Shown here: positions 5,411 through 54,716 of the stretch, piece by piece
Layout: each line of letters opens with the position of its first letter
Position numbering within the stretch: the first letter of the stretch is position 1
DNA from: Vampirovibrionaceae bacterium NZW_1234
GTDB taxonomy: Bacteria > Cyanobacteriota > Vampirovibrionia > Vampirovibrionales > JAGQHJ01
Reading direction: 5' to 3'
NCBI GenBank assembly: GCA_041697335.1
Contig: JBGUGD010000025.1
Coordinates: 131,764-195,763, forward strand
DNA length: 64,000 bases
The notes under the pieces: generated by a model
Database searches by the model: none
Told to the model about the DNA's origin: nothing
The model's input: only the letters and a program-made list of their open reading frames with translations
Program-made: the position numbers and the translations under genes

Positions 5411-6106
5411 ATGGTATCAATCTCTTCAATCTCCACACGCTCAACCACACAAACAGGTTACAGAACACACCGACCTCGAAACGTAGGGCAAAACGTTGTT
5501 TCTCCAACACAGATCCAGAGCTCTCCTTGCTTTGCCGGGTCGAAAACTCGTTCCGGCCTTCTGGGGATAGGTTTTTTGGCTGCTTTGACAGGGTTGGTCG
5601 GATGTCAGACTAAACCCGAGAAAGAACCTCCCGTTTTGGAGATTCGCTTGGATGACACCACGCTCCCTGGCTTAAGCAACGCCAAAGGCTGGTTTATTCC
5701 AACCGTCATGAAGCCGCAGCTCAGTCTGGGAAAAGATCGGGTTGTTGAGCTTGTGATTCAAGGAACCATTGATACCAATCAGGTTTCTGATGAAATTAAT
5801 CGCCATCTGGAAGGCAAATCGATTCACCAGAAAGATTGGGAAGAGGCCTACTTCAAGGAACTCAAAACCAAAGTCCTGGAGCCTGCCCTTCAAGAGCATT
5901 TGAACACGCTTTTGAATGTCGTGCCAAATCCCAATAACCTGGATCGGTTTGATGTGTCTCAATTGCTGCAAGATTATCTGAAAGAGCAAACCCGCTTGCC
6001 TTTTGTCACACGCCCGAATGACGAAAAAAAGAACCGCTTGTACTACAAAGGGCTCTACGGCCTTGAGATCAGGGACATAAAAATCATTCCAGTTGTAACC
6101 CACTGA
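5411..6106 (+). CDS. Hypothetical protein with S/T-rich leader and internal lipobox; weak SPFH-like C-terminus
   Basis: SPCFAG then LLGIGFLAALTGLVGC; ends YGLEIRDIKI. Confidence 0.65.
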   Translation: MVSISSISTRSTTQTGYRTHRPRNVGQNVVSPTQIQSSPCFAGSKTRSGLLGIGFLAALTGLVGCQTKPEKEPPVLEIRLDDTTLPGLSNAKGWFIPTVMKPQLSLGKDRVVELVIQGTIDTNQVSDEINRHLEGKSIHQKDWEEAYFKELKTKVLEPALQEHLNTLLNVVPNPNNLDRFDVSQLLQDYLKEQTRLPFVTRPNDEKKNRLYYKGLYGLEIRDIKIIPVVTH

Positions 6107-6130
6107 ATAAAAAAAATGAAGCAATAAATT

Positions 6131-6175
6131 AAAATACCCTGGCGAAGCTTTTTAATAAAGCATGCCAGGGTATTT
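6131..6175. terminator. Bidirectional terminator
   Basis: AAAATACCCTGGC...GCCAGGGTATTTT between convergent genes. Confidence 0.8.
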
Positions 6176-6193
6176 TTAATGAGACCTAAGGAG

Positions 6194-6658: not shown

Positions 6659-6698
6659 GTTGGATTCCTCCGTGTTGTTCTGATGTGTATGGCCGAGT

Positions 6699-6730: not shown

Positions 6731-6771
6731 ATAAAAGGTAAAAAAATTTGATGCTGATTTAGCGTGAAGGG

Positions 6772-7185: not shown

Positions 7186-7202
7186 TTATTCTGTTTACAT
7201 AT

Positions 7203-7254: not shown

Positions 7255-7755
7255 TTACTTGGACCAAGGGAATCGTAGCCCCTTAAGCCAAGCAATTAAC
7301 CCTTTAGGCTTAGGCTTTTCATCGGGTAACACCAGCTTTTGTCCGTCAGGAAAGAATTTCTTGTATTGGTCATCGATATACGTCTTGGCTCGGGAGAAGT
7401 CATCCTTTGTTTCGACCTTAAAATCTCCATGATAATTAATTTGTCCGGCACCAACCATCGTTTTGCCCGTCTGAAAGACAGCATTGACCATTAAAAAACG
7501 AAATGCATCCCAGACGATTTCACGGGCAACCTCATCGTGCTTGTCATAGGTCGCAAAGGCAACACCCTTGGATTGTGGCAGTATCCGACTGTAAACTTTG
7601 TCTTTTCCAATCTCGGACTCCAGCGCATTGACGATCTGCCCTGCAAATTGGTTGTGCTGCTCTTGATTCGCCTCATCAAAGGGCAGCGGTACGTGATACA
7701 GACTCTTAAACCGTAGTGGACTTGAAAGAGAGTTGGCCGTCATTGAAGCTCGCAT
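7255..7755 (-). CDS. Hypothetical protein with RF-type leader
   Basis: ATG at 7755 after GGGAG; MRASMTANSLSSPLRFKSLYHV. Confidence 0.7.
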   Translation of the reverse strand: MRASMTANSLSSPLRFKSLYHVPLPFDEANQEQHNQFAGQIVNALESEIGKDKVYSRILPQSKGVAFATYDKHDEVAREIVWDAFRFLMVNAVFQTGKTMVGAGQINYHGDFKVETKDDFSRAKTYIDDQYKKFFPDGQKLVLPDEKPKPKGLIAWLKGLRFPWSK

Positions 7756-16744: not shown

Positions 16745-17542
16745 ATGAACGTTTCAATGTCAAACCGGCAATGGCGCGTGTTTTCGAAACCGGTACAGGA
16801 ACCGCGCAGGAATGATGTGAATTTATCGTTGCGACATGGTCAATCACCTCGGTTTGGAGGGAATGACACGGGTTCGTATGCGCCCAACCTTCATCAGTGT
16901 CTACAGCAATGGGCAATTCGGGCATTAACCTACTTGAAAACCTTGATTGGGGACTTGCTCCAAAAGCTGGTAGCCCCATTGGCCAAAGGGGAAACCCGCG
17001 TGCTACATAAGACGAAATTCCTGGAAATGTGCGAATATCAGAGCCCCAATATCAACCATCCATGGATTTATGTCCGGTCCCCCATCGCCAAAGGGGCTGT
17101 GGTGGTTGTCCCGGTCAAAAACGACAAATTGATTCTCATCGAGCAGAAACGTCCGCCTCTTGAACATCTGGATGGCCAGGACACCAAAGGTGTTATTGAG
17201 CTTCCAGCGGGCCTCATCGGCGATGAGTCCGATCGGCAGGATGAGAATGCAATACAAGCCGCCAAAACGGAGCTGCTTGAAGAAACGGGATATAAGGCCA
17301 AATCGTTTACCTATCTGGGCAAAGGGGCCACATCACCGGGGATGAGCAATGAAGTTGTCCAATATGTGAAAGCCGAGAACCTGAAGCGGGTCTCGAAAAC
17401 GCTGGGGACTGAAAGTGAGGCCATTGTGAAGGTTCATCAGGTCCCACTCAAAGGGATTCAAGAGTGGTTGAAGGAAAAACAGAACGAAGGCTATGTTATT
17501 AACTGCTCTGTTTATTCCGGCCTGGGTTTGCTAAATAAGTAA
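16745..17542 (+). CDS. NUDIX hydrolase (ADP-ribose pyrophosphatase-like) with N-terminal extension
   Basis: ELPAGLIG...AAKTELLEETGY, SPGMSNE; leader ends SPRFGG. Confidence 0.85.
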   Translation: MNVSMSNRQWRVFSKPVQEPRRNDVNLSLRHGQSPRFGGNDTGSYAPNLHQCLQQWAIRALTYLKTLIGDLLQKLVAPLAKGETRVLHKTKFLEMCEYQSPNINHPWIYVRSPIAKGAVVVVPVKNDKLILIEQKRPPLEHLDGQDTKGVIELPAGLIGDESDRQDENAIQAAKTELLEETGYKAKSFTYLGKGATSPGMSNEVVQYVKAENLKRVSKTLGTESEAIVKVHQVPLKGIQEWLKEKQNEGYVINCSVYSGLGLLNK

Positions 17543-20723: not shown

Positions 20724-21293
20724 ATGATACAGACACATCGCATTGGAATACCGCCTCGATTCGCCGGGATTTACCGTGTGATTCCGGTGCCCGTTTCCCA
20801 ACCTGCACCCTCATTTCCCTTAAACAGTTCCAGTACTTCTCTAAGGCAACAAGAACGCTGTCGTCTTCGGAGCTCTCTATGGGAATGGGCTGCGTATGCG
20901 GCCAATCAAGCCCAAGGCATCTATCAGCGATGGGTACCCTTTGCATCAGGTTCGACGAATCCGCTGGCCCAGCGAAATCAGGTGATTGCTCGAAACGCGG
21001 CGCAAAAGATCCCGGATACCCAGCATCCTCAAGTCATTGAGGTGAGCTCAGAATACTATCTCGTGACCAATGATGCTCAAGGCGCTCACAACGCTGCGTT
21101 GTGGAAAGAACTGGGCTCTCATATCGATGCGTGTTTCGCGAGCCAGGTAAAAATGAAGCCAGGACAAAGCGAACGCTTACTCGCTTTCCTGAGGCATTAC
21201 CAGAACCAGGGGCAGGTTATGCCACTGAAGGCTCATTATCTGGAGCACCCCAATGGAGAATACCCCGTTATCCACACCGAGTTTCCCGGGTAG
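20724..21293 (+). CDS. Hypothetical protein with RF-type leader
   Basis: MIQTHRIGIPPRFAGIYRV; AAGGA RBS. Confidence 0.65.
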   Translation: MIQTHRIGIPPRFAGIYRVIPVPVSQPAPSFPLNSSSTSLRQQERCRLRSSLWEWAAYAANQAQGIYQRWVPFASGSTNPLAQRNQVIARNAAQKIPDTQHPQVIEVSSEYYLVTNDAQGAHNAALWKELGSHIDACFASQVKMKPGQSERLLAFLRHYQNQGQVMPLKAHYLEHPNGEYPVIHTEFPG

Positions 21294-33086: not shown

Positions 33087-34055
33087 CTATTGATTACTGG
33101 ATTCTCGATAATAAATTCGCCCAGAGTCAATATAACGTTGAATCGCCATAGAAGCTGAGACCGGGGTCTGAAGCGATTCATCGAGGCCTTTCTCATAATA
33201 GCCAAGCTTGGTTGATGTCGCCTTTGCAGTTTGTCCCAGTTCACGCGAGGCAATATCGATGACCAGATGGTTGAAATAGCGTTCGGGGTTGGGTCCAGTA
33301 GGAGCCATATGACGTACCCCATGGCCATGACCCAGGTTGGATTTTCCGTGATTCGTCCCGATGCTGTCATTCAACACGACCAACTGGACAGCCTTGGGGT
33401 TTAAATCTTTTAAATCATAGGCATAGTGTGCCAAGACGTGTGCCTGATATTCTTTTTTAAGCTGGTTTCCATAGTGAGACTTTACTTGTTTACCCGGAAA
33501 CAAGAGATCCGTGGGAGCCAGCCCATGGTCTTCGGCAAATTGAGAGAGATCGGCGAAAAACGGATAGGCTTCAATGTCTTTCGACGGCTCATAAAGCATC
33601 ATAGCAATCGAGTCCGTGGATTTGGTGTCGCAATGGATGGGGTTCAGCTTGAGCTTGTTGGAACGCCCCATATATTTCATCGTAAATCCGGCTTCACCGG
33701 CTACCCCAATCTCGGCGGAACGACGTTTCGCTAAGTGTTGGCCCAGCGCTACTTGGAAGGCTCGAATCAGAGGCATCTGATCCTGAAAGACGGTATCCAA
33801 TCCGGAAATCAAGGAGAAACCAGGCCCGGTCAAATCCTGACGAAAAACGCGGTCATAGACGGCATCGACAAAACGGCCCCGAATTTTTATCCGGTTTCCC
33901 GGTAAGACGCGAACATCCGTGGGCTTCAAGTCCAATCGATAGTGATCGGGTTCAGGCATGGGACGGGGATTCTGATGCGCATCCACGCCACCAAACCCAA
34001 AACGAGGGTTTTTGACCGTTGGAGTCACAATAGAATAGAAGGAAAGCACCGACAT
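33087..34055 (-). CDS. TauD/TfdA-like Fe(II)/2-oxoglutarate dioxygenase-like protein with RFG leader
   Basis: GFSLISG, IHCD (HxD), FFAD, VVLND...HGHG...RYF; leader NPRFG. Confidence 0.55.
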   Translation of the reverse strand: MSVLSFYSIVTPTVKNPRFGFGGVDAHQNPRPMPEPDHYRLDLKPTDVRVLPGNRIKIRGRFVDAVYDRVFRQDLTGPGFSLISGLDTVFQDQMPLIRAFQVALGQHLAKRRSAEIGVAGEAGFTMKYMGRSNKLKLNPIHCDTKSTDSIAMMLYEPSKDIEAYPFFADLSQFAEDHGLAPTDLLFPGKQVKSHYGNQLKKEYQAHVLAHYAYDLKDLNPKAVQLVVLNDSIGTNHGKSNLGHGHGVRHMAPTGPNPERYFNHLVIDIASRELGQTAKATSTKLGYYEKGLDESLQTPVSASMAIQRYIDSGRIYYRESSNQ

Positions 34056-37000: not shown

Positions 37001-37112
37001 TCGTCTGTCGTGATTTGATAATTGGATAGCAACAGATCGACTTGAGCGGTGTTCATACATCATCTTCTCACCTAAACACAAGCATCACCTTGAGAGTAAA
37101 GAGGAAAATTCG

Positions 37113-38441
37113 ATGAATCGCTTGGCTATCAATTCTTTGACATCTGCCTCGAGCCCAAGATTATCCTCCCGCAAGCCGATACTCCAAGGGCCTATTTTGT
37201 GCCAAACACAGGATAAAGTTCACTTTTCCGGAAAACAAGCCATCACCGCAGAGTCCCAATCAGCCACTGTAGCAGTCACACCGAAGATCATAGACATTGA
37301 CACCACTATCCCTGCATCAGCATTGGAAAGCGGTCCCGTGACTCTCGGGGCTCAAAGCACCGGAGCCGGCTATGAACTCCAGCACAGTCTCCACAATGAC
37401 GGCCAGGATTCGCTTGTAAAACTGCAAAAAGAGGGTTCAACATTACAACTGGAACACCAATCAGGGTCACCTGTGACCGTAACCACATCTACAAGTGACC
37501 ATCGCATCAGCCTATTCGCGTCAGAAAGGATTGCACTTCAGCCAGGAGATCGGCTGGAAATAGCGAATCACCAGTTTGAAGTTACGCCAGATTCAGGGAT
37601 AAGACTGATCACCCGAGACATCGTTGCATTGTCGAAACTTTACCCCGATAGCCGGGTCGCTGTTCCACATCAAACATTCGAGTCAAACACCATCGACACT
37701 CCTACGGTACAGTGCCACCAAACGTCTACCCCTGACTGCGGCCTTGTGGCGACCCTGAATAGCATTGCGTTTAATCCGGCCTTCAGCCACTTGTTGAGTT
37801 CAAAATTTCGACTCATCAATCCGCATACAATAGAAGTTTCGCTGTTTCACCCGAAATCGCGTAAGGTAAATCCCAATAACGGCTGGGAACTCACTGAACC
37901 TGCTCAAAAAGTAACCACCTGTTTAACCCGGGAAGCATTAAATGCCCATCTCAGTCCACAAAACCCAGCCACGCATCGAATCGGCTTGCAGGGACCCAAG
38001 GGCAATACGTTACTCGAAATGGCGTTCCAAAATGTTATGCGCGACGTTCGAAACGATCCGCTTTGCGGCCCCAGACCAGAAGAAGTCATGTTCAGCTTAA
38101 CCGGACTACCAGCCTTGCAACTGGATTACAGTGAGCCGAAACAGATAGGCAAGCTGGCGACCTTCCAAAACAACTATCTTATGGTCGCAGAAGTGATGTG
38201 TGTTGCCGGCATGGACCCGAAACTGGGTGGCTTAGACACGGCCGGTAACCTCTGGGTATTCGATACCGAAGGCAATAAGGTCCAACTGCCGGAGATGCAT
38301 TTCTATTCGGTGTTAAACATTGACTCGGAAAAACAAACCGTGAAACTGCTCAATCCTCATCAAGGTTCTAAACCGTTTAGTATTACATTTGAGGCTTTCA
38401 GCGCCGCATTCGGCAACATGATATTAGGGCGAACACGTTAA
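37113..38441 (+). CDS. Calpain-like (C2 / papain fold) cysteine protease with FHA-like region and leader
   Basis: QTSTPDC.LVA.L, LLEMAF, LTG, HFYSV, LLNPH; LQPGDRLEI; leader DKVHFSG. Confidence 0.7.
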   Translation: MNRLAINSLTSASSPRLSSRKPILQGPILCQTQDKVHFSGKQAITAESQSATVAVTPKIIDIDTTIPASALESGPVTLGAQSTGAGYELQHSLHNDGQDSLVKLQKEGSTLQLEHQSGSPVTVTTSTSDHRISLFASERIALQPGDRLEIANHQFEVTPDSGIRLITRDIVALSKLYPDSRVAVPHQTFESNTIDTPTVQCHQTSTPDCGLVATLNSIAFNPAFSHLLSSKFRLINPHTIEVSLFHPKSRKVNPNNGWELTEPAQKVTTCLTREALNAHLSPQNPATHRIGLQGPKGNTLLEMAFQNVMRDVRNDPLCGPRPEEVMFSLTGLPALQLDYSEPKQIGKLATFQNNYLMVAEVMCVAGMDPKLGGLDTAGNLWVFDTEGNKVQLPEMHFYSVLNIDSEKQTVKLLNPHQGSKPFSITFEAFSAAFGNMILGRTR

Positions 38442-39851: not shown

Positions 39852-41339
39852 ATGTCCAACGTGTACATTTCTAGTCTCCGATTTAAAGGGGAATTCTTGT
39901 TTCCCAAGCAATATCAGCCTGTAGCCGATGAATTGAATAATCCGATCCAGTTTGTGACGCCTGAAATCGATTACACACCGAATGTCCGGGAGTGGCCCAA
40001 AGATAAGAACTTTTTCTATTTCTTTCAACGAAACTTCGATGATAGCCAGTTTACCTCTGTTAACGGGACACACTTCGACATTCGAACGGCTTTATACCTC
40101 AAGGACAAGAATGTTCCCTTTGCCTATCAGTCCAGTTTTGAGGGGGGTATGGATACACCGGAAACCTTTGAAAAAAATGCAGGCACTCCCATTTCAAACA
40201 ATGCCGATACGGATGATCTGATTGCGGGCAAGATTGCGTTGCGCAAATCCTTTGTTTGGGTACCTGCTACCATGAGTGGGAATCCTTTTGCCGCCTTAAG
40301 CACCCCCGTAAAGACGACGACTGCTGCTATGACTGCTGTTAATACTGTTGTTCCGGTTCAAGTTGTTACCCTTCAGGAACGCATTAAAGGTGCCATTCTG
40401 GCACTGGCCAGTGGCGATGCCCTTGGCTGCAATGTGGAATTTAATTCACCCGATCTGATCAAGCAGAAGTTCGGCGTCCATAAAGACATCACTGGCGGTT
40501 CTACCGGTCCAAAGCACCCTTATGAATACCCCAGAGGTGCCGTAACGGATGACACACAGATGACTGAAATGATGGCCGAAAGCTTAATTGCTCACCCAGA
40601 GGGCGATATGTGGGATTTGCGAGATCGATTTGTTGCATGGATTAAACCGAATCCGCCCGGCACCGGCAAAGGCACCCGTGAGGTTTTGGCCAGAGCCGAG
40701 CACTTGAATCCGGCCAAAGATCAGCCGGATGATGCTGCAAAAGCATTATGGGAAGCCGATCATAAGAACGGCGGCGGCAACGGCAGCATTATGCGTTGTT
40801 CTCCTATTGCCCTGATGTATGCCAGCAACCCCGACAAGCTGAAAGAGTTATCACTAAAAACCTGCAGCATTACCCATTACTCCCCGGCGGCTAAAGCGTC
40901 TACCTTGGCTTATAACCGCATTCTGGCTGCCATCGTGAATGGCACTGCAAAAGATAAAGAGAGCTTTCTTTCTGTCTACGAAGAGGCTGCCAAAGAAGCT
41001 GAAACGTTGAGCCCGGAAACGGCCCAGGCCATTCGGAATGTCCCTCTCATTACCGACAAGTCGCAACTAAAGACGAGCGGTTATACCCTGGATACCATGC
41101 AGGTTGCTTTATGGGCCCTACTGAATTGCGACACCTTGGAAGACGCTATCGTAACCATGGTTAACCTCGGCGGAGATACGGACTCCAACGCCGCCGTAAC
41201 AGGCGCTTTGTTTGGCGCTCTTCAAGGCGAAAAAGCGGTGCCAAAACGCTGGTCTGAAGCTCTTTTGAACGGCCCGCAATTGAGTTCCCTTGCAGACCGA
41301 CTCTATCAGAAGACACAAAGCCTAAACTCGCCTGCATAA
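39852..41339 (+). CDS. ADP-ribosylglycohydrolase (DraG/ARH family) with N-terminal extra domain
   Basis: GDALG, TDDTQM, GNGSIMR, ITH, GGDTDSNAAVTGAL; leader SSLRFKG. Confidence 0.9.
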   Translation: MSNVYISSLRFKGEFLFPKQYQPVADELNNPIQFVTPEIDYTPNVREWPKDKNFFYFFQRNFDDSQFTSVNGTHFDIRTALYLKDKNVPFAYQSSFEGGMDTPETFEKNAGTPISNNADTDDLIAGKIALRKSFVWVPATMSGNPFAALSTPVKTTTAAMTAVNTVVPVQVVTLQERIKGAILALASGDALGCNVEFNSPDLIKQKFGVHKDITGGSTGPKHPYEYPRGAVTDDTQMTEMMAESLIAHPEGDMWDLRDRFVAWIKPNPPGTGKGTREVLARAEHLNPAKDQPDDAAKALWEADHKNGGGNGSIMRCSPIALMYASNPDKLKELSLKTCSITHYSPAAKASTLAYNRILAAIVNGTAKDKESFLSVYEEAAKEAETLSPETAQAIRNVPLITDKSQLKTSGYTLDTMQVALWALLNCDTLEDAIVTMVNLGGDTDSNAAVTGALFGALQGEKAVPKRWSEALLNGPQLSSLADRLYQKTQSLNSPA

Positions 41340-42113: not shown

Positions 42114-43625
42114 ATGTACCCCGTCCGCTTGCATTATTCACCACAAGGTGCCCGAATAAAAAGCGAATACTCGTTTTCCAAGGCACTGTTTCCACGTGTA
42201 ATACCCGACTCCCTAAATAAATGGTCATCCTCTACCCGCTTCCTTGGATTTCCTAAACCTTATACCATCACAGCAGATTTGCAGCCTGGTGCCCCCAAAC
42301 GTCTATCGGTTCAGGTTGTGAGCGATGTCCACCTCAATAACCACGAGCATGCGTCTTCGGAAGACGGTATTGTCACTCCAACAACCATAAAGCCTGCCTA
42401 TGACAACCCGCGACGGCGTCACTTCCGGCGATGGTTGGATACGGTGTATGACCATGGCAAACACAATCCTCAACAGCTGGTGCTCATCCTCAATGGGGAT
42501 ATTCTGGACGTCAATGGGTCGTGGTTTGATGCCAATCACCCCTGCCAGCTTCAGAACAAAAACACATCTGCTCCCAGTCAAACACTACACCGAGTCGTTC
42601 AATCCATTATCGATAATAATGCGTCTGTTTTCGATCGGCTGCAAAGCATTCTAGCACAGCCCTTTGCTCGAATTGTTTATGTAATCGGCAATCATGATCA
42701 CCTGCTGAAAACCGATCCCACCATCCAACAGCGCATTCGAGACCGACTAATGCCGGGCTTAAGTCCGGAGGAGCAGGCTCGAAAGTTCATTTTTTCCCAA
42801 GCCGTTGACATACCGGACGTCGGTCTGTACGCCACCCATGGACATCATCTGGATCCCTTCAACCGAATCGAAAAATCCCGTCAGGCTTGTTGGGGCGACT
42901 GGGTCACGGTTCAACTGGTTAACGGCAGTATTCGTCATACGGTGGCAACCCTCAAAGCTGCGGCACTTCCGGAGCCCGTTATCGAAAAAATCACAAAAAA
43001 GCTCCACCATTTGGAATACATTCGCCCGAGTACGGCGGTGCCTATTTATATCAAGCAACTGGCGAAGCAGTATGAATCACTCTATGCCACCAGTAATCCG
43101 GAGATGGGGAAAACCATTTCCAAGGCCCTGATGTCCTTCTCGGATGCCTTGGGGGACGCTTGCATTGACAGCATTGCTATTTTAAGAAAATCAAAACACT
43201 CCTGGGCAGGCAAGCTTGTTCGCAGCGTGCTGCAAAACCCTAGAATCCAAAGGATATTTGCCCGTATCGTATCCCTCGCAGAAGCCTGGTCGACTGACAG
43301 CAATCGGGCCCAGATTCGAGAAGTCCGCCAATGGGCCAGGGAAAAAGGGTATAAAATGGTAACCTATGGCCACACCCACAGCCCAGAATATCGGCTTGTC
43401 GAAGGTGTCCGCTATATTAATACGGGCACGTGGAAACATGCCATTCATGCCTTCCTCGACAAGGGCACCTGGATTTTTCCTGAAAAAATCGTCCCCAGAA
43501 GCATCCTGAAGTGCAGCGTGAATCTTGAAAAACCACTGGAGAAACGCAAAATCCATTTTCAGGTTGAGACAATGGAAAAAGGCAAAATCCGGTCCGCCAA
43601 CATCAATCAGGATAATCCGAATTAG
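42114..43625 (+). CDS. Calcineurin-like metallophosphoesterase
   Basis: SDVH, NGDILD, GNHD, HGH, GHTH, YINTGTW. Confidence 0.88.
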   Translation: MYPVRLHYSPQGARIKSEYSFSKALFPRVIPDSLNKWSSSTRFLGFPKPYTITADLQPGAPKRLSVQVVSDVHLNNHEHASSEDGIVTPTTIKPAYDNPRRRHFRRWLDTVYDHGKHNPQQLVLILNGDILDVNGSWFDANHPCQLQNKNTSAPSQTLHRVVQSIIDNNASVFDRLQSILAQPFARIVYVIGNHDHLLKTDPTIQQRIRDRLMPGLSPEEQARKFIFSQAVDIPDVGLYATHGHHLDPFNRIEKSRQACWGDWVTVQLVNGSIRHTVATLKAAALPEPVIEKITKKLHHLEYIRPSTAVPIYIKQLAKQYESLYATSNPEMGKTISKALMSFSDALGDACIDSIAILRKSKHSWAGKLVRSVLQNPRIQRIFARIVSLAEAWSTDSNRAQIREVRQWAREKGYKMVTYGHTHSPEYRLVEGVRYINTGTWKHAIHAFLDKGTWIFPEKIVPRSILKCSVNLEKPLEKRKIHFQVETMEKGKIRSANINQDNPN

Positions 43626-43627
43626 AT

Positions 43628-44083
43628 TTATTTCAGCTTTGATGCCAGCTCCGGCAAGGACAAGGCGACGGCTCTCAGTCCTTCTTTGGCTTGTTTCAAC
43701 TTACCCAAAGTCAAGGCTGCAGGAACTTGCTGGAGTTGAAAGAACAGAGTACTACGCTGATCGCCCGTTTGATCCGGCCGCGTATCTCCTAAATAGACCA
43801 GGCGGAGCAACTGATCAGCCAACTTTAAGCCTTTTTCGGAACCGTCGGAGATGCCATCGACAATTTTCTGCTGCAATCGATCCATCGGCACTTTCGAGGC
43901 CAATGTCTTTAATGTCCGCACCGGCGTTTTTTTCGACAAGGCCATCAGTAAGTCAGACTCGAAGGCATTGTCTGTTGTTGAAGTACTGGAAAAACGAGGG
44001 GATTGAACGGCGCTTGTTTGTTTCGAGACAAAGGCAGTGCCACGACCATACCCAGGGCACGGGGAAGAATACGCAATTTTCAT
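43628..44083 (-). CDS. Hypothetical protein with RF-type leader
   Basis: MKIAYSS...QSPRFSS followed by a helical domain. Confidence 0.6.
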   Translation of the reverse strand: MKIAYSSPCPGYGRGTAFVSKQTSAVQSPRFSSTSTTDNAFESDLLMALSKKTPVRTLKTLASKVPMDRLQQKIVDGISDGSEKGLKLADQLLRLVYLGDTRPDQTGDQRSTLFFQLQQVPAALTLGKLKQAKEGLRAVALSLPELASKLK

Positions 44084-46073: not shown

Positions 46074-46167
46074 GGGGTGTTGCTCCTGTTTTCGAAGCGC
46101 AATTTTATGGCAGGCGTGGTGTTATATAAACCACATCCGATTAATGACATACGGAGTCATCGGCCTG

Positions 46168-47994
46168 ATGCGCATCTCTGCTACCACGCCCCCAATCCGC
46201 CTGAACACGCCCATCCAAGCGAACCGTAGGACTCCGTCTGCTCGCTTTAGCGCAGCGCCTCAGAAAAAGATCAGCTTACTGAATCACCCGCTTCAGACAC
46301 ATTTTTCTATCCAACACCCTGAACTCCCGCGCCCTTTAAACTTGACGCTTTATATCGAGGATATGGACTCTGCGAATCCCAATCATCTGGGGTTTCAGTA
46401 TCGGGCCATCGATCGTCAGGCCGGTCGTTATTCCTTTAAGCAAATCCAAAACGCGGTTTCCTTCGAACTCCTCTATACAGACAGCTATACCGAAGGCCTT
46501 ACCCAGGAACTTGATTACCGAGAGTTCTTTCAACAGAATTCGCCAGAAGAATTTGCCTGGTTCAATTGGCCCGAATCCAACGATATTGCCTTTAATCCAA
46601 AAATTCGTGTTCTTCTGGCTCAGGCCTTATTGGATGAAGCTATACAGAAAATTGAAAACGACTTCCAGACATCCTGGCCCCCAAAGCCCAAGACCCTTGC
46701 CATGCCGGTTTATGAAAAATCGCAGATGGATGTAGCCCTGGCGCTCGGCTTCAAGCCATTACCCGTCAAGGCCTCTGAGGAGCTGATGGCTGAAATGCAG
46801 ACATTGGGACGGGTCAAATATGATGTTCCCATGATATTCTATCGCCCAATCGACTCACCTTCCCCTATCGTCCCTGCTCCGGAACTTCAAATCGTTCCAA
46901 TCACCGCAGACCCACCCAAACTCGTCACCCGAGAGGATGTTCACCCGCAAACACACTCGAATCATATCTCCTTTCCCAATAATGCAGGGGATTCAAGGCC
47001 CAATATCCTCTTAAGCCATGATGGTGAGCCCGTGATTTCGGTCATTGATTCACCTCCCGGCTTTATTCTGGAGCGGAAGCATCCGGGAGTTCTGCAGTTA
47101 AACGTCTCGCAAGGGTTAAACCCCGAACAAAGCAAAGTCAACGGCCGAAAGATCGGTCGTGCAGGGACCTATTTTCTCAATCCGGGAGATGAATTACGGG
47201 CTGGCGCCCATGTTTATGCATGTGATGCCAGTGGGCTTCGCCTTCTAAGTGCGCAGGCAGATGCCTATGAGCGTCTGTTTCCACGCGGTCTCAAACATCT
47301 ACAATTCAAACAAGGGGGCTACGGAGATTGCTACTTTCTTTCAGCCATTGCTATTGCAGCATCCCATCCCAAAGCCCGCCAGAGATTGGCGCAGACAGTG
47401 ACATTAAACACGAAGGGTGAGGCACAAGTGGTGTTTTATGGGTTACCCGATCTTCCCCAAACCGTCAGGATTCCTCTGCCGTTTAAAGACGGGCGGGTGC
47501 ATGGGCCGCTTGGGCTTCAGATTATCGAGGAAGCTTTTGGGCAAATGTTGGCCACTAAGGGTAAAACGTCAATGCGAAAAGCGCTCAATGGCGGAAGTCC
47601 TGCCAGTGCTTTGGAGCTCCTCACCGGATTCCAGCAATCGGATTACGCCATTTCCCATACCACGTCCGATGGAAAGCGGATTGTCGATGACGATACGCTA
47701 CTGAGTAGCTTAAAACTGTTGGCCAAAGCGGCTCAAGACCCAGGGCGCTATCTTATCGGGGCGAGTCGAAACAAATTAAAAAAAGGGGAAGTCAACGAAT
47801 ATCCGCAGTTTCCGACGCAGCACGCTTATATTCTGCGTAAAATCGATTTGGAAAACGACCTGATTATCGTGACCGATCCCCATGACACGCGCCGGAAAGA
47901 ACGCCAGTTAGATATCAAATCCTTCAGCGAAATTTTCGATCACCTCTGGTTAGCTCGCGACACCGCCGAAACCGACAGTGTCGCGAGTAACTAG
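46168..47994 (+). CDS. GNAT-like + FHA-like + calpain-like cysteine protease
   Basis: QGGYGDCYFLSAI, IIEEAF, GGSP..ALELLTG, HAY, DPH; VNG...LNPGDELRAG; leader SARFSA. Confidence 0.8.
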   Translation: MRISATTPPIRLNTPIQANRRTPSARFSAAPQKKISLLNHPLQTHFSIQHPELPRPLNLTLYIEDMDSANPNHLGFQYRAIDRQAGRYSFKQIQNAVSFELLYTDSYTEGLTQELDYREFFQQNSPEEFAWFNWPESNDIAFNPKIRVLLAQALLDEAIQKIENDFQTSWPPKPKTLAMPVYEKSQMDVALALGFKPLPVKASEELMAEMQTLGRVKYDVPMIFYRPIDSPSPIVPAPELQIVPITADPPKLVTREDVHPQTHSNHISFPNNAGDSRPNILLSHDGEPVISVIDSPPGFILERKHPGVLQLNVSQGLNPEQSKVNGRKIGRAGTYFLNPGDELRAGAHVYACDASGLRLLSAQADAYERLFPRGLKHLQFKQGGYGDCYFLSAIAIAASHPKARQRLAQTVTLNTKGEAQVVFYGLPDLPQTVRIPLPFKDGRVHGPLGLQIIEEAFGQMLATKGKTSMRKALNGGSPASALELLTGFQQSDYAISHTTSDGKRIVDDDTLLSSLKLLAKAAQDPGRYLIGASRNKLKKGEVNEYPQFPTQHAYILRKIDLENDLIIVTDPHDTRRKERQLDIKSFSEIFDHLWLARDTAETDSVASN

Positions 47995-48003: not shown

Positions 48004-50625
48004 TTAAGCGGCGCTACTGGCTTGTGACTTTTGACCCAGGGATTCCCAGACCGTCAGGATATCGTGCAACCGTTGACGGGATTGCGGATTACGAATCATC
48101 GAGGCATTAATCTCCCGCATCCAGTCCGTCAGTCTGTAGCCAAAACGTTTATCCCCATCGCCGCCATATTGGTGCGTCAATTCGTGGAGATACGTTGCCA
48201 GGACCTCTTCAAAGGGGTGCGTGTTGAGGTGAGTGCGGTCAATCCAGCAACCTTTAAAGGTATAGGGCGCATGCCAGCTATCGCCAAAATCAGGATATTC
48301 TGTGATGGCCTGACCATAAACATGGCTGCCCTCATTGGCATCTTCACCTTGATCGACCTTGGCGCGAGCCTCCGCTTTGTAGTCAAACAGATAAATCGGC
48401 TGGTCCACGTCAGCCTTACGGATCAGAAGCGGTGATTTTTGCATTTTGGCAATCACCTGATCTTCCAGAAATACCGTTGCGGCTTCTTTCAGAAGATTCA
48501 TCCGCTTGGTTTCGACAATCGTAGGGCGTACACCCTGGTGTTTGCCCAATTCATCCAAAACAGTATCCATGGTGGGAACGCCTACTTTGGCAAAATTATG
48601 ATGCACCATGGTGTACCCGCGTTCTACAAGCGATTTTATGGCATTGGCGCGATTCCCATAAATATGTTCGGGTAAAGCCACGCATTTCAGATTTTTAGGC
48701 ATGCGAAGCCCGCCATTACGATTTCTGTCGGCACTGCCCAATTCACTGAGCAGGGCACCTAGAATGCGAACCGGCACAAGATCCTCACAGCGCTCAATGG
48801 AGGGAGCAACCTTCTGCTGAACCAAGGCCACCGGGCTCCAGAAGTTTTTCAAGTCATACGCGGCTTGCACAATCTGTTCATTGGTCATCGTTTTGACAAA
48901 ATCCTTGTTGAGCAGCTTTGACAAATCGTCATTCGTCAGGAAGGTCCTGTCCCGTCCCACGCTCACATCGGCGGCGGCATTGGGCTTGCGCTTAAACCAC
49001 AAACTCACGTGAGGGGTCTCATTGGCCCATTTACCCCGATCGCCATATTCAAAACGCTGATTGGCCAGGTAGACATTCCCGTTTTGCCCCGTGGGCAGGA
49101 TCTTAAAACCAAAATGGTCGTTTTCGAAAGTCGGGGCCTGGAAGTCCTTGTTTTCAGGATGATAAAAATAATTCATGGCCCGAAAGACCGCCGAAACCAG
49201 GTTTTCATCCTGGGTTTCAAATTCCACGAAATTCCCTTTAATGGGGGGAACCTGCTTCAAGGTCTTGTAAATATAATCTTTCTTCTTAGAATCTCCGGAT
49301 TTGTTGCCGAGCTTGAAGCCCATACGCCAGTCACCGCTCTGGAAGGCAATTTCTTTGACGCCAAATTTGCTGACCATACGGTACGACAACATTTTAGCCC
49401 CTTCACCATACCCTCCGGCATTATAGGGGTTTTCACGTTTATTCCCGGCACCATAGTCTTCAATACATTTTTGCTGGAATTCGCCTTGGCCGCTAATCCG
49501 AACTTTGTAGCTCTTTGTTGCGGGATTGTAATGGACATCGTATTTGACGCCCTCCAGCGTGTGTCCGTGACCGTCATAAAAATTCTGCAATAAATCCCGG
49601 GCCGTTTTGTCCTCGGTCCACTCGGCCAGGGACGAATCACCGTATTCAAACTTGAACTTGGTATTCTGCTCCCCATCCGCCAGGAACTGTCGAATTTCCG
49701 GATCGGTCATATCCAGATTCGGGTTGGGATCCACGTCCGGCCTGATTCGCCCATGTACCGGAATTTCACCCGAAACACGACCTTGAGATTTTAATGTGCG
49801 GATGACATCAGCACCTTTTACGCGTGTCCCGTCAAATATGGGTAGTCCCACCCGGATGGAGGGTGTCGAGACTTGGGATGGCAAATCAAAAACTCGGCTC
49901 TTACCCGCTAACGGATCCGTCGTACTGTTGGTTTGTGCCGGGGCTATCGGATGAGTCACAGGAGCCTGGATCTTGGTTCTCAACGCTTCCAGGCGACTTT
50001 GACGGGTGGTATCCAATTGCCGCACCTGGTCATCGGACATGCCATTTAAAATCGTCCGAAACGTCTGAAGTGCTTGATTATCCTGGGTCAACCTGCGATT
50101 CTCTTTTCTGAGCCTCCGATACCGTTTCTGGAGCTTCTGATACGCATCACTGTCCTGAGCCGCAATTGTCGTATTCCGCCCGGCACCCCTAACCACCGTT
50201 TTCTTACCGCCAGTTGAACTCGTATTCGCGGTCGCTGTCGGTTGTGAACTGGCAGCTCCATTGCCGCGAGCAACAGACCCATTGGTTGAAGCCGTTGGCT
50301 TTCGTTGAGTTTTCGAAGGCTTTGCAGTGCCCGTAGGCGGTTTCTTCCGCTCGCCGGTGATCCATCCGAACACCCAGGCCAGAGAGTTATAAATCAACCG
50401 GAATGGGTAGGTCAAAATATCCCCAATGGTTTGTATGAACGAACGCGATTGCTCTCTGGAGTTGCTGCGTTGGGTATTCGACTCGCTGGCAAAACGAACT
50501 GAATCCGCTTTGGGCTCTAGGCCTTGTGTCAGGAAAATGCTTTTAGCAGACTTGGCTCGGAGAGGAGGCGCAGCAGAATATCCTGTAGAAACAGTAAAGA
50601 CCGGCGAGGTCAAGGCGTTCATCAT
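48004..50625 (-). CDS. GHKL-ATPase-like + HExxH zincin protein with leader and coiled coil
   Basis: RDLLQNFYD, GAGNK, AGGYGEGAK, YLHELTH; leader DSVRFAS. Confidence 0.7.
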   Translation of the reverse strand: MMNALTSPVFTVSTGYSAAPPLRAKSAKSIFLTQGLEPKADSVRFASESNTQRSNSREQSRSFIQTIGDILTYPFRLIYNSLAWVFGWITGERKKPPTGTAKPSKTQRKPTASTNGSVARGNGAASSQPTATANTSSTGGKKTVVRGAGRNTTIAAQDSDAYQKLQKRYRRLRKENRRLTQDNQALQTFRTILNGMSDDQVRQLDTTRQSRLEALRTKIQAPVTHPIAPAQTNSTTDPLAGKSRVFDLPSQVSTPSIRVGLPIFDGTRVKGADVIRTLKSQGRVSGEIPVHGRIRPDVDPNPNLDMTDPEIRQFLADGEQNTKFKFEYGDSSLAEWTEDKTARDLLQNFYDGHGHTLEGVKYDVHYNPATKSYKVRISGQGEFQQKCIEDYGAGNKRENPYNAGGYGEGAKMLSYRMVSKFGVKEIAFQSGDWRMGFKLGNKSGDSKKKDYIYKTLKQVPPIKGNFVEFETQDENLVSAVFRAMNYFYHPENKDFQAPTFENDHFGFKILPTGQNGNVYLANQRFEYGDRGKWANETPHVSLWFKRKPNAAADVSVGRDRTFLTNDDLSKLLNKDFVKTMTNEQIVQAAYDLKNFWSPVALVQQKVAPSIERCEDLVPVRILGALLSELGSADRNRNGGLRMPKNLKCVALPEHIYGNRANAIKSLVERGYTMVHHNFAKVGVPTMDTVLDELGKHQGVRPTIVETKRMNLLKEAATVFLEDQVIAKMQKSPLLIRKADVDQPIYLFDYKAEARAKVDQGEDANEGSHVYGQAITEYPDFGDSWHAPYTFKGCWIDRTHLNTHPFEEVLATYLHELTHQYGGDGDKRFGYRLTDWMREINASMIRNPQSRQRLHDILTVWESLGQKSQASSAA

Positions 50626-51340
50626 GGTGAAATCCCCTTAAGTTAAATGGGTGCATTCCTATCAAAGAAATAAATGTACGACTCATGAAAAAGTAGAAAA
50701 ATGTGTTCTACCCATCTAAACCACCTCAAGCAAATTTGTTGCTAGGACATTTTACCCATCTCTTGCTCCATTCTCAGGTTGAAGACACCCGACCAGTCGA
50801 TATTGGCTTTAGTCCATTAGGCCGTCTTCCCCAATCTTATACACCTTCGTGTCTTGTTTACGTTTTTGTAACGCAACATATGTTTACCTACTATGTTCTC
50901 CGTAATATGGTCCGCATAAGATAATACCATCAGCTTTGAAGGGCTGGTGCTTTAAGGAAACAGGTGTTGCAGCTTTTATTTCCCGGATCTCGATCCTGAA
51001 ATAAGGCAATCCAGTGGAACACCAGACATTATCAAGAGATCCCGATTTCTTGATTTTCCATTTCGAAGGGAATGGTTAAACTCTCCTATGAGGCAGTAAG
51101 CAAGAACACTTGTGTTCACGTGCTTATGACATAAATTCGGTGAAATTCCGAAACGTATCGTCCTGCTCAACAGCTTCGTGCTCAAACAGCAACGATGCCG
51201 GAGGTCCACAGTCCTCCACCCAACCTTCAAGGCTGATACATTTATCTGACACAACACTGTGTCATTGGATTACCAACCCACTCTTTTCTATCAACACACA
51301 CACATCTCTCAACCAATCACACCACATATCAGAAATTCAC

Positions 51341-51378: not shown

Positions 51379-51441
51379 AAGCGCCCTTTGGATTTGCTAT
51401 AATTCTCCCCTGAGGATGAATGGGGACGGTTATAACGTATC

Positions 51442-53424
51442 GTGGTTTTGCGTGTGGATTCGCTGACAACATCTGGAAGCATACGTCAGAATGTACAAGA
51501 GGTCCTTGTGTCCTCACCTTTGTTTTTACAGAGGCCAAGTACACTTTATTCGCCGGTCGTGGATTCGGTTGCCTTCTCGGGCAGAGGCAAGAAAAACAGA
51601 CGTGTTAAACGTTTTCCAGATATTCACCCTCCGCCAATCCCCCAAGGCGAACCGGCACCGGGCATTTTTACCGTCGCTATGCCAGACACCGGCCTACCCC
51701 TCCAGTTTTATCTCAAGACCAGCAAAAGCAAAGCCCCTGGTACTGTAAGCTATGAATGGGAAGATCACCGTATCGGTTCTCAACAATTGGATGTCACCCA
51801 TAGGGTGTCCATGGAGCTACAGGTGCAAGGCCGAAAGCACCTCAAAAAACAGGGCATGAATGCATACAGTTACGATGGGCTTCCTGCCGGAGGGCCGGTC
51901 ACGCGTCTGGACATCCGGAATATTTCAATGCCCTATGAGTCCGAAGAGATGAAACAAACAGTATTACCGGCCTTACTGGAGTATGCGGTGTATAAGAGTC
52001 GGGAACTGGGTATGGAGGGTCGGGTATCCTGGACCTTTAGAAAAGACAACTGGGCCTGGTACACCACGGCTATGAATGCGGGTTTTGTCCCCCGCCCGGA
52101 GCGGGAAACCCCACAGAAGCAGCCTTCAAAAACGATGACGATGACGTTGCCCTCTGCGCATATCCAACGCATCCTGAAATCTCCCAGGTACCATCTTCCG
52201 GTTAATGCTGCCGTTGTCATTCCCAATCCGCTACTTTTTCCCAAGCCGGAGTTCTGGGCCCTGCCTGTGCCCAAGACTCAAACACCATGGCTGAGCTTTG
52301 ACACGCAAGGTGAGGCAAAGCCTGTTTCGACGGCCTCAACCGGACCAACGCTGATGGTTACACCCAATGGTCATGCTTATCTGTATCCCGGCACCGGCGA
52401 CAATCCAAAAGCCACCCTCGTGTCCCGATCCGTCACGCTTGCGGACAGCCCCATCCGACTGTATACCGAGGATGAATTCCAGATAGGGAACAAGGTTTAC
52501 CTGTTGAGTGCGGCCGGTCTCCACCTGCTGACCAGTCAAGCCGAGGTATACCGTTCTATGTTCCCCACCGGGCTCAAGGATCTCCAGTTCCAACAAGGCA
52601 AAATTGGAAATTGCTTCTTTCTGGCAGCCGTCAAAGCATTGACGTATCATCCGCAGGGTAAAGTCACTTTGGCCAATCTCCTAAAATCTCATACCGATGA
52701 GCGCGTCACCCTGCGCCTTACAGCATTTCCTGAAAATCCATTTACCCTGAGCCCCGATACCAGCTATGTGCCCAACGGCGTCAAAACACCGAACCCGGCG
52801 TTAAAACTGCTTGAAGAGGCCTTTGGCCGGTTGCGCCGTCAGTTTGGCTGGGGAGGGAGGTCACTGTCGCATGATCTGTCCAAGTGGCTTGATGGCGGAG
52901 ACCCGGCAGATAGTCTTTACACCCTTACAGGCTGGCCTACGGAGTATTACAGCGGTACTGAGCGCCATACCAAGGCCAAACCCAGATCGGGGAATGTGAC
53001 GTTCTCTGATATCGAAGATGACCATGGTTCCTCTTGGCGAGCCTTATGCGCCTACCTGGATCATCTGGCCGACAACCCCGAGAAATATATCGTGACTGCC
53101 GACACCCCCGAACGTCGTAAAACCTACCATAATCTCATTCGTGGTGGGTTTGTCGACCCCGATTGCCGACTGCTGGAAAACCATGCATTCGCCGTTTGCC
53201 GCATTAACAAAGCGCAAAGAACGCTGACCATTGTCGATCCCCATTATGCCGGTGACAACGCCAGCGAAATTACTCTCAGATATGCCGATGCATATTATTA
53301 TTTCTCCGGGTTTAACGTGGCCCGAGTGCCCCAGGAGTATCATTTTAAACCTGTCGTTCTCCCCGAGAGCGCCCCAAAACGATGGCTCTATCGGGTCGCC
53401 CTATTTTTAAGCCGATTCATGTGA
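51442..53424 (+). CDS. GNAT-like + FHA-like + calpain-like cysteine protease
   Basis: QGKIGNCFFLAAV, LLEEAF, GGDP..LYTLTG, HAF, DPH; leader DSVAFSG. Confidence 0.8.
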   Translation: MVLRVDSLTTSGSIRQNVQEVLVSSPLFLQRPSTLYSPVVDSVAFSGRGKKNRRVKRFPDIHPPPIPQGEPAPGIFTVAMPDTGLPLQFYLKTSKSKAPGTVSYEWEDHRIGSQQLDVTHRVSMELQVQGRKHLKKQGMNAYSYDGLPAGGPVTRLDIRNISMPYESEEMKQTVLPALLEYAVYKSRELGMEGRVSWTFRKDNWAWYTTAMNAGFVPRPERETPQKQPSKTMTMTLPSAHIQRILKSPRYHLPVNAAVVIPNPLLFPKPEFWALPVPKTQTPWLSFDTQGEAKPVSTASTGPTLMVTPNGHAYLYPGTGDNPKATLVSRSVTLADSPIRLYTEDEFQIGNKVYLLSAAGLHLLTSQAEVYRSMFPTGLKDLQFQQGKIGNCFFLAAVKALTYHPQGKVTLANLLKSHTDERVTLRLTAFPENPFTLSPDTSYVPNGVKTPNPALKLLEEAFGRLRRQFGWGGRSLSHDLSKWLDGGDPADSLYTLTGWPTEYYSGTERHTKAKPRSGNVTFSDIEDDHGSSWRALCAYLDHLADNPEKYIVTADTPERRKTYHNLIRGGFVDPDCRLLENHAFAVCRINKAQRTLTIVDPHYAGDNASEITLRYADAYYYFSGFNVARVPQEYHFKPVVLPESAPKRWLYRVALFLSRFM

Positions 53425-53477
53425 CCTGCCCTCAACGCAATCGTCTTTCGATGACAATCCACGTCGGAGCATAGAGA

Positions 53478-54716
53478 TTACATGAGGCGATAGTGGGGGT
53501 ATCGGGCTTTAAAAGCGGTTATGGCGTCATCGGCTTGGGCTTGAAACTGGGGCATCAGTGCCATGGCGACATAATTTTCCTTGGAAGACATTCGGGTGAC
53601 GGCAGGCAAAAGATGATGATACAGACATGTGGTTTCAAGCCCCAATGGGGTCCGATCCGGGTCCAGGTCGTCTCGTCGCCACTCTTCACCGAAACTGCGC
53701 GCGGCCATTCTCGAGAGCCGCACAATTCCTTCATCCATCAATATATCGAGGACAGCTTCGTGATCATCACTGTTCACAAGTTTCGGCGGTGTTTTGTCCT
53801 GCCATGTCCTGACCAGAGAACTGACTCGGGGAAAGGGGAATGTTTTCGAGGATTCCAAGGTATCCACCAACTGACGCACCAATTCCTGGCGGACCTCACG
53901 ACAAGGGGCGATGGCATCCGCAGCATAAGGATTTCCCTTACCTGCCAACGTAGGTAAATGATGTTGCATCAGCGCCGAAACAAGCCGAATCTCCATTGCC
54001 AGCCGCATCGGTGCCGGCATAGACACTTGCTCCGAATTGTCGAATGGGTTTTCCGTATACGTATTGTATTTGGCTTCATACAGTTTCTGGGTCAGCAGCA
54101 TGGACAAATCCCGTGCTGCTTTTCGGTTCGGATTCCGAATATCCGAAGGCACCTCGGGCTTAATGGCCTGGACCAGCTTCAAAAGATTCTGGTAAGGAAA
54201 AATCGAGGGATTTTGCATCAGGGTCATAAACGACTCCTGAAGTTTTTCCCGGGCTGTATCGGCCAGGCGCAACCCCTCCAAAGCAAAGGGATTCTGTTCT
54301 TCTTTCAACAGTCTCATCAGGCCTGGATAAATATCATCCCGCAGGGTTTGCAGTTGCAGATGATGCATTTCCCACTCTGGAATGCGACGCCCCTGACGAA
54401 CAGTGCTTCGCATCCCAAATTCCGCATATAGCTCATTGACCCCTTGACGAAGTACAGCCAGCACCTGCTCATGGTCATGATCCAGTCCCCCGTCCGGGGA
54501 TGGCGGAAACCCATGAACCAACGCACTCATCAACGGAAACACCAAGCCGGGGGAGGCCGACGCCGGATTTGAGGATCGGGCCACCGAGGCAAAACGCACG
54601 AAGACATCTTCCACCTTGGTGTTCGAGGCATTCCGTCTCAGAACATTGGGAGATAACGTCACTGTCGGACGCTGGTGAGCTTTGGTGAATCCTGGCAATG
54701 AAAGCGGATCTGTCAT
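53478..54716 (-). CDS. Helical-repeat hypothetical protein with leader
   Basis: Three diverged ~110-aa repeats with NPFA / NPYA / NYVA; leader DVFVRFAS. Confidence 0.7.
   Translation of the reverse strand: MTDPLSLPGFTKAHQRPTVTLSPNVLRRNASNTKVEDVFVRFASVARSSNPASASPGLVFPLMSALVHGFPPSPDGGLDHDHEQVLAVLRQGVNELYAEFGMRSTVRQGRRIPEWEMHHLQLQTLRDDIYPGLMRLLKEEQNPFALEGLRLADTAREKLQESFMTLMQNPSIFPYQNLLKLVQAIKPEVPSDIRNPNRKAARDLSMLLTQKLYEAKYNTYTENPFDNSEQVSMPAPMRLAMEIRLVSALMQHHLPTLAGKGNPYAADAIAPCREVRQELVRQLVDTLESSKTFPFPRVSSLVRTWQDKTPPKLVNSDDHEAVLDILMDEGIVRLSRMAARSFGEEWRRDDLDPDRTPLGLETTCLYHHLLPAVTRMSSKENYVAMALMPQFQAQADDAITAFKARYPHYRLM

Follow-up and report, generated by a model that had tools for sequence, protein, structure and literature searches.

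A phenylalanine-centred N-terminal tag on accessory proteins of a Vampirovibrionia bacterium: a candidate export signal for a second flagellum-derived machine

Why should proteins with different domains begin with the same few residues? The question is raised by a stretch of 64,000 nucleotides from Vampirovibrionaceae bacterium NZW_1234 (GenBank assembly GCA_041697335.1, contig JBGUGD010000025.1, positions 131,764 to 195,763, forward strand), hereafter the window. Many of its accessory open reading frames (ORFs) encode an acid-poor N-terminal leader carrying a short box centred on phenylalanine (Phe), here called the tag. An initial annotation had quoted 14 such motifs and suggested an export or targeting signal. 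All 14 are in frame and close to the N-terminal end of the ORFs named for them, and one further candidate was found (32206-33048). Our preferred explanation, to which we give a probability of roughly 0.55, is that the tag would serve as an export signal in a type III-like system of flagellar descent, by which cargo would leave in one step through a second machine.

Gene calls and start sites for the whole genome, which is 94.75% complete, were made by script and comprise 3069 genes. Of 2476 proteins, 278 have the pattern RF[GSA] within their first 70 residues; shuffled N-termini yield 87 (at most 108 over 100 shuffles), and interior windows 92. Genome-wide, no tripeptide of this region is more enriched than RFG (161 N-termini vs 27 shuffled, maximum 41, and 35 interior), and the wider pattern [RHA]F[GSAK], put forward in the initial annotation for an enrichment check, is likewise in excess (472 vs 278 in shuffled N-termini, maximum 318). 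A scoring matrix was trained on the N-termini of this genome, and proteins reaching at least 10 bits, 338 of 2874, are called tagged; matrix-scored windows (n = 2168) gave 258 N-terminal and 18 interior hits, a difference that is partly circular owing to that training. The excess above the interior rate is 154-255 proteins across four fixed patterns, with RF[GSA] alone giving 215, and tag carriers number about 215-340 proteins, roughly one in ten of the genome. Conserved genes are seldom tagged (4 of 155 vs 338 of 2874 overall), and the ilv, car, mnmA, fix and dnaE products, rightly described at the outset as free of the tag, all score below 5 bits.

The consensus reads [S]-[S/A]-[P/V/L/I]-R-F-[G/S/A/Q]-[G/S/A]. 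In a frame control (n = 2168) the counts were 247 vs 83 in frame, and 140 vs 138 and 146 vs 144 in the off frames. Every Arg and Gly codon occurs within the tag, and the bias towards TTT at its Phe is mild (267/338, compared with 575/822 elsewhere in the same N-termini). Since the signal is confined to the reading frame and makes use of every Arg and Gly codon, the tag is selected at the protein level; a DNA-level or frame artefact is ruled out by the same frame and codon tests.

Arg immediately precedes Phe in 311 of the 338 tagged proteins. As first described in the window, the leaders are acid-poor (Asp plus Glu 4.2% vs 9.3%) and rich in Ser, Thr and Pro (29.6% vs 19.9%); the residues right after Phe are small, and acidic residues return beyond it. 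An N-terminal hydrophobic stretch is found in 7 of 338 tagged and 368 of 2127 untagged proteins, membrane helices in 26 and 446 of the same two sets, and the Tat signal of RR-x-F followed by a hydrophobic h-region in none of the 338. These counts bear out the proposal of a protein-level tag, neither Sec nor Tat, on an accessory set. Homology begins past Phe in 26 of 31 tagged proteins that have a leaderless paralogue, and the leader is, on such comparisons, an add-on ahead of domains whose outside homologues have none. The claim that the domain starts directly after the motif applies to some proteins; generally the gap is about 4 to 60 residues or more. Among homologues of the ADP-ribosylglycohydrolase of the window, the members of a close clade have leaders that contain the box between unrelated flanks, and distant members begin almost at the domain. 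With a pattern widened after inspection 9 of 11 close and 0 of 104 distant homologues are boxed; with the stricter preset pattern the counts are 3 of 11 and 3 of 104. A shared folded domain behind the short leaders was considered and rejected: a strand-like pattern is seen in 31 of 338, but leave-one-out profiles recovered 0 of 7 seeds usefully. Sequence searches for such a domain returned just 1 to 5 relatives, and the single-sequence fold of the protein starting at 7743 was unusable (predicted local distance difference test 47).

The cargo was surveyed by a Pfam scan of 103 of the approximately 330 tagged proteins, drawn from 19 tag-rich regions, plus 20 window proteins. A match was obtained for 41 of the 103 and none for the other 62; some of the 41 (YdjM, FliW, SLH) are probably false positives. 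Named protease-type cargo comprises Lon, ClpP, ClpX/B-like, FtsH-like, trypsin-like and calpain proteins. Named metabolic cargo includes citrate synthase, PurA, phosphoribosyl pyrophosphate (PRPP) synthetase, nicotinate/nicotinamide phosphoribosyltransferase, CinA and an adenosine/AMP-type deaminase, together with MalQ, thiolase, enoyl-CoA hydratase, aldehyde dehydrogenase, diacylglycerol kinase and Nudix. Tagged PurA, citrate synthase, PRPP synthetase and malate dehydrogenase align unbroken with leaderless copies (41-55% over the parts compared), and PurA, single-copy in 34 of 34 other genomes, has here a second, tagged copy that keeps the conserved motifs. The tagged set includes extra leader-bearing copies of housekeeping enzymes beside intact leaderless ones. 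The effector toolkit first proposed is too narrow a description, the cargo being broader and its nameable part largely second copies of metabolic enzymes and proteases. The adjacent genes for PrkA, SpoVR and DUF444 each have their own box, as would be expected if each chain were exported singly. Overall, the cargo is fast-changing and genome-specific.

Some three in ten of the tagged genes also have a motif in their upstream DNA, RGCA-N10-TTGAGGnG-N2-TTWWT, which usually lies 20-50 bases ahead of the start. With a cut-off of 12 bits, and with genes that have less than 50 bases of upstream gap omitted, this DNA box was found at 85 of 307 genes with the tag and at 45 of 1634 without it, 4 being on the reverse strand; held-out halves gave 40/169 vs 32/988 and 36/138 vs 26/646. 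By eye, many untagged genes behind a DNA box have variant boxes (HFSG, QFG, LFG, SFSG) or Pro/Tyr-rich N-termini, and tagged genes without it showed no clear second DNA motif. From its position and strand we infer that the DNA box is a promoter. It also bears on the objection that true starts might lie downstream of the tag: all 85 promoter-anchored tagged genes have a predicted in-frame start between DNA box and Phe, and Phe sits 4-75 residues past the first such start. The DNA box and its coupling to the tag are new in this analysis.

A strict form of the DNA box was compared with a spacing-shifted control in 44 genomes (f1-f11 denote families within the class, G and L labels genomes and loci of relatives, and G000 the genome under study). 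It is in excess in f1 (84 vs 15), f3 (39 vs 7) and f4 (15 vs 3), and not in f5 (18 vs 36) or f10 (2 vs 5). Genes of f3 picked by the DNA box alone carry the tag at 6 of 12 sites with a downstream ORF in G140 and 4 of 8 in G029, the loose tag pattern used having a background of 23/150 in G029. Among box-picked genes of f4 the tag is doubtful (4 of 11, two of them convincing; background 40/156). In genomes of f4 and f7 the DNA box is followed by the gene for a protein with a Pro/Gln/Tyr-rich N-terminus (L246, L235, L261, L277, L108:18310-19521); this protein is possibly a core regulon member, and no homologue was seen among the matches listed for G000.

Which machine might such a tag address? 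A full flagellum and a second flagellum-derived set are encoded in the same genome, and the type III export core is complete, with two sets of FlhA, FlhB, FliPQR, FliI, FliH and FliF. The second machine is found on contigs C32 (10110-20950: FliI, FlhA, FliH, a protein in the FliG slot, FliF, FliE, a transglycosylase and FlgC/B/G/F-like proteins), C8 (66046-69954: FliN/SctQ-like, FliO, FliP, FliQ, FliR), C29 (178730-180600: FlhB, then a FliA/WhiG-like sigma factor) and C30 (50448-52826: FliJ and FlgE-like). It owns rod and short-hook proteins, its transglycosylase carries the tag, and FlhB2 retains an NPTH-like site, NPIH. FlhA1 and FlhA2 are 37% identical, and FlhA2 shares 62-67% identity with 13 Melainabacteria-type loci of the same gene order. 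In a FastTree tree of 80 rows (matches shorter than 550 residues omitted), FlhA2 falls within a long-stemmed Melainabacteria clade on the flagellar side, outside the SctV-side clade, which was labelled by taxa and context without named references. The sigma factor, whose FliA/WhiG-like assignment lies below the cut-off, adjoins flhB2 downstream in G000, G144 and G050, and has a paralogue 42-44% identical to it (C16:18950-19630). A conserved protein of 80-81 amino acids lies just downstream of flhA2 in three Gastranaerophilales-type loci (L031, L032, L033).

Other parts of the genome bear on the choice of route. Two FliD paralogues (C5:100662-102461 and 141547-143340) begin with a box-like hydrophobic-x-FGG motif, as do the FliD of a relative (L153:13191) and a flagellin-like protein (L027:2038). 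The genome has a complete-looking Tad/Flp pilus cluster at C2:140729-150242, labelled by sequence features and a secretin match, as well as a type IV pilus/type II cluster on C19. There was no match to VirB4 (PF03135) or TssC (PF05943) in the genome, one family having been searched for each system and Dot/Icm-type systems lying outside the search. Of the two options first raised for the tag, type III/flagellar export has thereby gained a concrete candidate machine, and type IV export is weakened because VirB4 is unmatched in a genome 94.75% complete.

The preferred explanation, export through the second machine, can be set out as follows. The tag, [P/V/L/I]-R-F-[G/S/A]-[G/S/A] in an acid-poor leader, would address proteins to this machine beside the swimming flagellum. 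The flhB2-linked sigma factor or its paralogue would read the DNA box and turn on the cargo in a feeding phase, and the Phe-centred box, forming an extended strand, might dock with either the export gate or a chaperone. The cargo (proteases, enzymes of NAD, nucleotide, glucan, tricarboxylic acid cycle and beta-oxidation metabolism, and many orphans) would work outside the cell, acting as metabolic effectors most plausibly inside a prey or host cell. In favour of this link, the properties of the cargo call for a one-step route, and other one-step machines were not found in the searches made. Type III effectors of Pseudomonas syringae have Ile, Leu, Val or Pro at position 3 or 4, no Asp or Glu in the first 12 residues and at least 10% Ser; these rules hold jointly for 94 of 338 tagged and 161 of 2127 untagged proteins, an enrichment only.

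By analogy, the tag with its regulon box would seem to work most like a type III secretion signal. The hrp box and similar effector regulon boxes are single upstream motifs of scattered cargo genes served by an export-linked alternative sigma factor. One upstream motif, scattered cargo genes and an alternative sigma factor linked to export genes are found here too, but the sequence is another, the operons of the machine lack the box and the sigma factor is FliA/WhiG-like. The RxLR and PEXEL motifs of eukaryotic parasites are short, linear and N-terminal and mark hundreds of unrelated proteins, after a signal peptide. With these, and with the FGLK motif of organelle import, the tag shares its form and the variety of its cargo, and it differs from them in being bacterial and without a signal peptide. 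The gate-recognition motif of flagellar substrates has the consensus FxxxL; the tag shows no enrichment of hydrophobic residues at +3 or +4 (54/338 and 49/338).

The closest precedents come from three systems. In FlgD the gate-recognition motif occupies residues 36-40 and, in the accessible part of the source, needs spacing from a second N-terminal signal (PMC8983047); it resembles the tag as a short hydrophobic N-terminal motif of unchaperoned substrates for a flagellar-type gate. Chlamydia exports the glycogen enzymes GlgA/B/X/P, MalQ and MrsA by type III secretion, as stated in the portion consulted of one report (PMC4829429). Like these metabolic effectors, the tagged proteins have an N-terminal, Ser-rich, acid-poor region without a Sec signal, and MalQ is among them; unlike injectisome effectors, they number hundreds and carry a fixed five-residue motif at a variable distance from the start. 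The SctV-lineage injectisome also differs, since FlhA2 is on the flagellar side and its machine has rod- and hook-type subunits instead. The needleless T3SS* of Myxococcus xanthus acts with a Tad-like Kil pilus and has a proposed role in prey lysis, according to the available passages of its description (PMC12075869). Common to both are a type III-like core, no needle or translocon noticed and a Tad cluster in the same genome; the system described here differs in its flagellar-side origin with rod and hook proteins, and in its shared substrate motif, of which the available passages of that work mention none for T3SS* (PMC12075869).

The distribution of tag and machine across the class gives a mixed picture. 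FlhA is present in 171 of 251 class genomes and scarce mainly in f5 (1/78) and f10 (0/2); it is kept without a flagellin match in 14 of 16 sampled genomes (f7 6/8, f8 4/4, f9 4/4). The sigma factor was found in 35 of 44 genomes (f5 0/7, f10 0/2), with two copies in f1, f2, f3, f7 and one f4 genome, and one copy in f6, f8, f9 and f11. A tag rule preset from G000 and G144 was applied to relatives (43-386 genes per genome), and it is above chance only in G000 (180/2843), G146 (4/43, one being FliD) and G144 (10/386); G161 and the f2, f3, f4, f8 and f9 samples stay within chance. Samples of f5 and f10, families nearly without FlhA and without the sigma factor, show no tag excess (3/205, 0/85, 3/143) and no DNA-box excess. 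Lineages without FlhA lack the excess, and so do several FlhA-bearing families.

A number of observations weigh against the preferred explanation. Despite having FlhA and the sigma factor, f2 (0/59), f8 (2/133) and f9 (3/152) show no tag excess, and samples of G161 (0/53), G029 (0/148) and G001 (3/154) show none either, although single clear boxes are visible in the latter three. The DNA box is not in excess in f2 (16 vs 15), f6 (6 vs 10), f7 (25 vs 19), f8 (4 vs 7) or f9 (2 vs 6), and box-picked f7 genes have the tag in 0 of 8 cases by per-genome tallies, or 0 of 10 including G048. The co-occurrence is one-sided, the negative genomes belonging to two lineages only; blanks in machine-bearing families could reflect small cargo sets or lineage-specific motifs. 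The DNA box heads none of 17 operons (two flagellar systems, sigma genes, Tad cluster; best score 1.5 bits), and the second machine's rod subunits are untagged. No CesT chaperone scored above the cut-off in 26 genomes, a weak test in which control genomes gave no match either, and no needle, translocon or dedicated outer-membrane ring was noticed, needle and translocon families lying outside the searches. In a small number of tagged proteins the box is followed by a stretch resembling a Sec, lipoprotein or Tat signal. In 5 of 85 promoter-anchored genes the box lies within 5 residues of the start, so that, unlike the gate-recognition motif, it can sit at residue 5 with no fixed spacing. Type III signals, moreover, are not known to have a fixed motif.

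Of the alternatives, the one that survives best, and is still unlikely, holds that the box is a processing site, or a sorting tag for another route through a peptidase-coupled ATP-binding cassette (ABC) exporter, an M16 peptidase, or Tad or type II-like systems. The small residues past Phe and the return of acidic residues would suit it, and Tad and type IV pilus/type II clusters exist in the genome. A double-glycine leader of peptidase-containing ABC transporters was rejected, since a GG, GA or GS pair follows Phe in just 78 of 338, C39-ABC transporters lying outside the search. Presequences cut by the mitochondrial processing peptidase (MPP), an M16 type, have Arg two residues ahead of the site; Arg stands two residues ahead of Phe in just 2 of 338, and that candidate was rejected too. 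Leaders of 4-5 residues leave little for cleavage, and two or three boxes occur in one leader in some relatives, though here several tags in one leader are not enriched (5/338 vs 6.7). Tad and type II systems draw their cargo from the periplasm, whereas the tagged proteins lack Sec and Tat signals. By their defining tests the tag is not a Sec, Tat, MPP, double-glycine or gate-recognition motif.

Somewhat less probable again is a tag unrelated to export, recruiting a stage-specific second proteome, under one sigma factor, to an internal site or to a protease or adaptor as a degron or scaffold. Such a role would fit a cargo that contains complete enzymes of housekeeping type, the PrkA-SpoVR-DUF444 trio, and Lon, ClpP, ClpX-like and FtsH-like proteins; it would also fit a shared DNA box that is missing from the operons of the machine. 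A genome-specific, fast-changing cargo with no Pfam match for 62 of 103 sampled members speaks against it, as do the status of tagged copies as extras to intact leaderless ones and the agreement of the leaders with type III rules.

It is also conceivable, as a long shot, that the box acts after delivery by mimicking chloroplast or mitochondrial targeting peptides and steering cargo into organelles of algal prey. The acid-poor leaders rich in Ser, Thr, Pro and Arg are of the right kind, the cargo resembles organelle enzymes, and the joint presence of F, G/P, R and S recalls the FGLK motif that binds Toc34, as described in the consulted part of one source (PMC5571161). The FGLK consensus fits the leaders loosely, many of them being far shorter, and by the same portion of that source the motif is not clear in algal RbcS peptides (PMC5571161). 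Least probable is exit through the gate of the motility flagellum with a signal derived from the start of FliD, for which speak the similar starts of both FliD copies, the RFS of a FlgJ-like protein and the flagellin of all families with the clearest tag and DNA box (f1, f3, f4), and against which speaks the variant box in G144 (10/386, p 0.016, with a rule partly derived from G144), which has a second-type FlhA and no flagellin match.

Within the window, 10 of the 14 quoted motifs score 10 bits or more or nearly so, nine of them at least 12. Strong boxes on named proteins are RFGG (16850..16861, +) in the Nudix protein 16745-17542, RFGN at residue 6 (30207..30218, -) in an extra guanylate kinase (29553-30233; the genome has three Gmk-like genes), RFKG (39879..39890, +) in the ADP-ribosylglycohydrolase 39852-41339, and RFSA (46243..46254, +) in a calpain-family protease ending at 47994, which has a promoter-like DNA box of 15.8 bits (46098..46126, +) upstream of its start near 46168. 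Weaker are RFLG (42237..42248, +, 1.4 bits) in the metallophosphoesterase 42114-43625, AFSG (51571..51582, +, 5.2 bits) in the calpain-family protease 51442-53424, and HFSG (37221..37232, +, 1.6 bits) in the calpain-like ORF 37113-38441. Despite its low score, this last variant is independently supported because its gene has a DNA box of 23.8 bits (37028..37056, +). Pfam backs the initial labels for Nudix, Gmk, ADP-ribosylglycohydrolase, metallophosphoesterase and two calpains; the third calpain owes its label solely to similarity to the second (E 1.6e-6). A protein of 111 amino acids without a Pfam match (38445-38780, -) is convergent with 37113.

The remaining boxes lie in proteins without a clear family. 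RFAS (50485..50496, -) belongs to an 873-residue protein (48004-50625) behind a DNA box of 28.1 bits (50715..50743, -); the GHKL-zincin label given to it corresponds to just a weak WLM match. Its homologues in other Melainabacteria retain a variant box, the preset box being found in 23 of 59 (shuffle mean 2.4) but confined to 6 of 26 clusters at 50% identity. In many of these homologues (P0023-P0055 and others) a membrane-helix-like stretch directly follows the boxed leader. RFGF (33993..34004, -) stands in ORF 33087-34055, for which the TauD-like label was not upheld (no Pfam match at 0.01, no PDB match at E 1). No function is assigned to the carriers of RFKS (7702..7713, -; ORF 7255-7755, upstream DNA box 11.3 bits), RFSS (43985..43996, -; ORF 43628-44083), RFAS at 8.8 bits (54585..54596, -; ORF 53478-54716) or RFAG (20757..20768, +; ORF 20724-21293). 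Language-model neighbours of the last protein are mostly type III substrates (SopB, YopR, EspF, SctX, SopE), a weak lead from one query without control, at scores of 0.75-0.78 that lie below the reliable range. The quoted CFAG (5528..5539, +) scores 5.2 bits in the leader of ORF 5411-6106 and is followed by a hydrophobic, lipobox-like stretch. The additional candidate box RFRA (32773..32784, -, 11.9 bits) lies in ORF 32206-33048 (-), whose start site is uncertain; the protein has no Pfam match and a Cys/His arrangement that we take to resemble CheD/CNF-type deamidases.

Other genes of the window include a Fur/PerR-like regulator (6772-7185, -) with SRFG at residue 15 (7.7 bits, probably by chance), a 198-residue protein in which about 100 residues are duplicated almost perfectly (23119-23715, -), and a protein with a pilin-type N-terminus followed by long Ala/Thr/Asn-rich repeats (59203-61728, +). 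Database homologues bear the names Candidatus Gastranaerophilales, Melainabacteria and Vampirovibrio, and by these the genome belongs in Vampirovibrionia or close to it. Four listed sequencing runs, each containing at least half of the words sampled, carry the labels hot spring or microbial mat, and no RNA run was listed as holding the window stretch.

A search of the open literature, to which subscription papers on V. chlorellavorus do not belong, turned up no account of either the tag or the second machine. Vampirovibrio has been proposed to attack through a conjugative type IV system, as stated in the accessible part of that report (PMC4451040), and the tag offers a direct alternative. A wider view, which we hold tentatively, is that Vampirovibrionia may have evolved, from a duplicated flagellum and independently of the injectisome, a type III system with a sequence-defined tag and a sigma regulon, which would install a second metabolism of hundreds of enzymes and proteases in prey or host; the machine and a variant tag would survive in non-flagellated gut Gastranaerophilales. 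This bears on the number of origins of secretion systems from flagella, and the nature of the type III signal, a long-open question, can be tested with a motif that has a true consensus. A readable motif would reveal, by sequence alone, the secreted repertoire of an uncultured class that is sister to the oxygenic cyanobacteria and counts an algal predator and common gut bacteria among its members.

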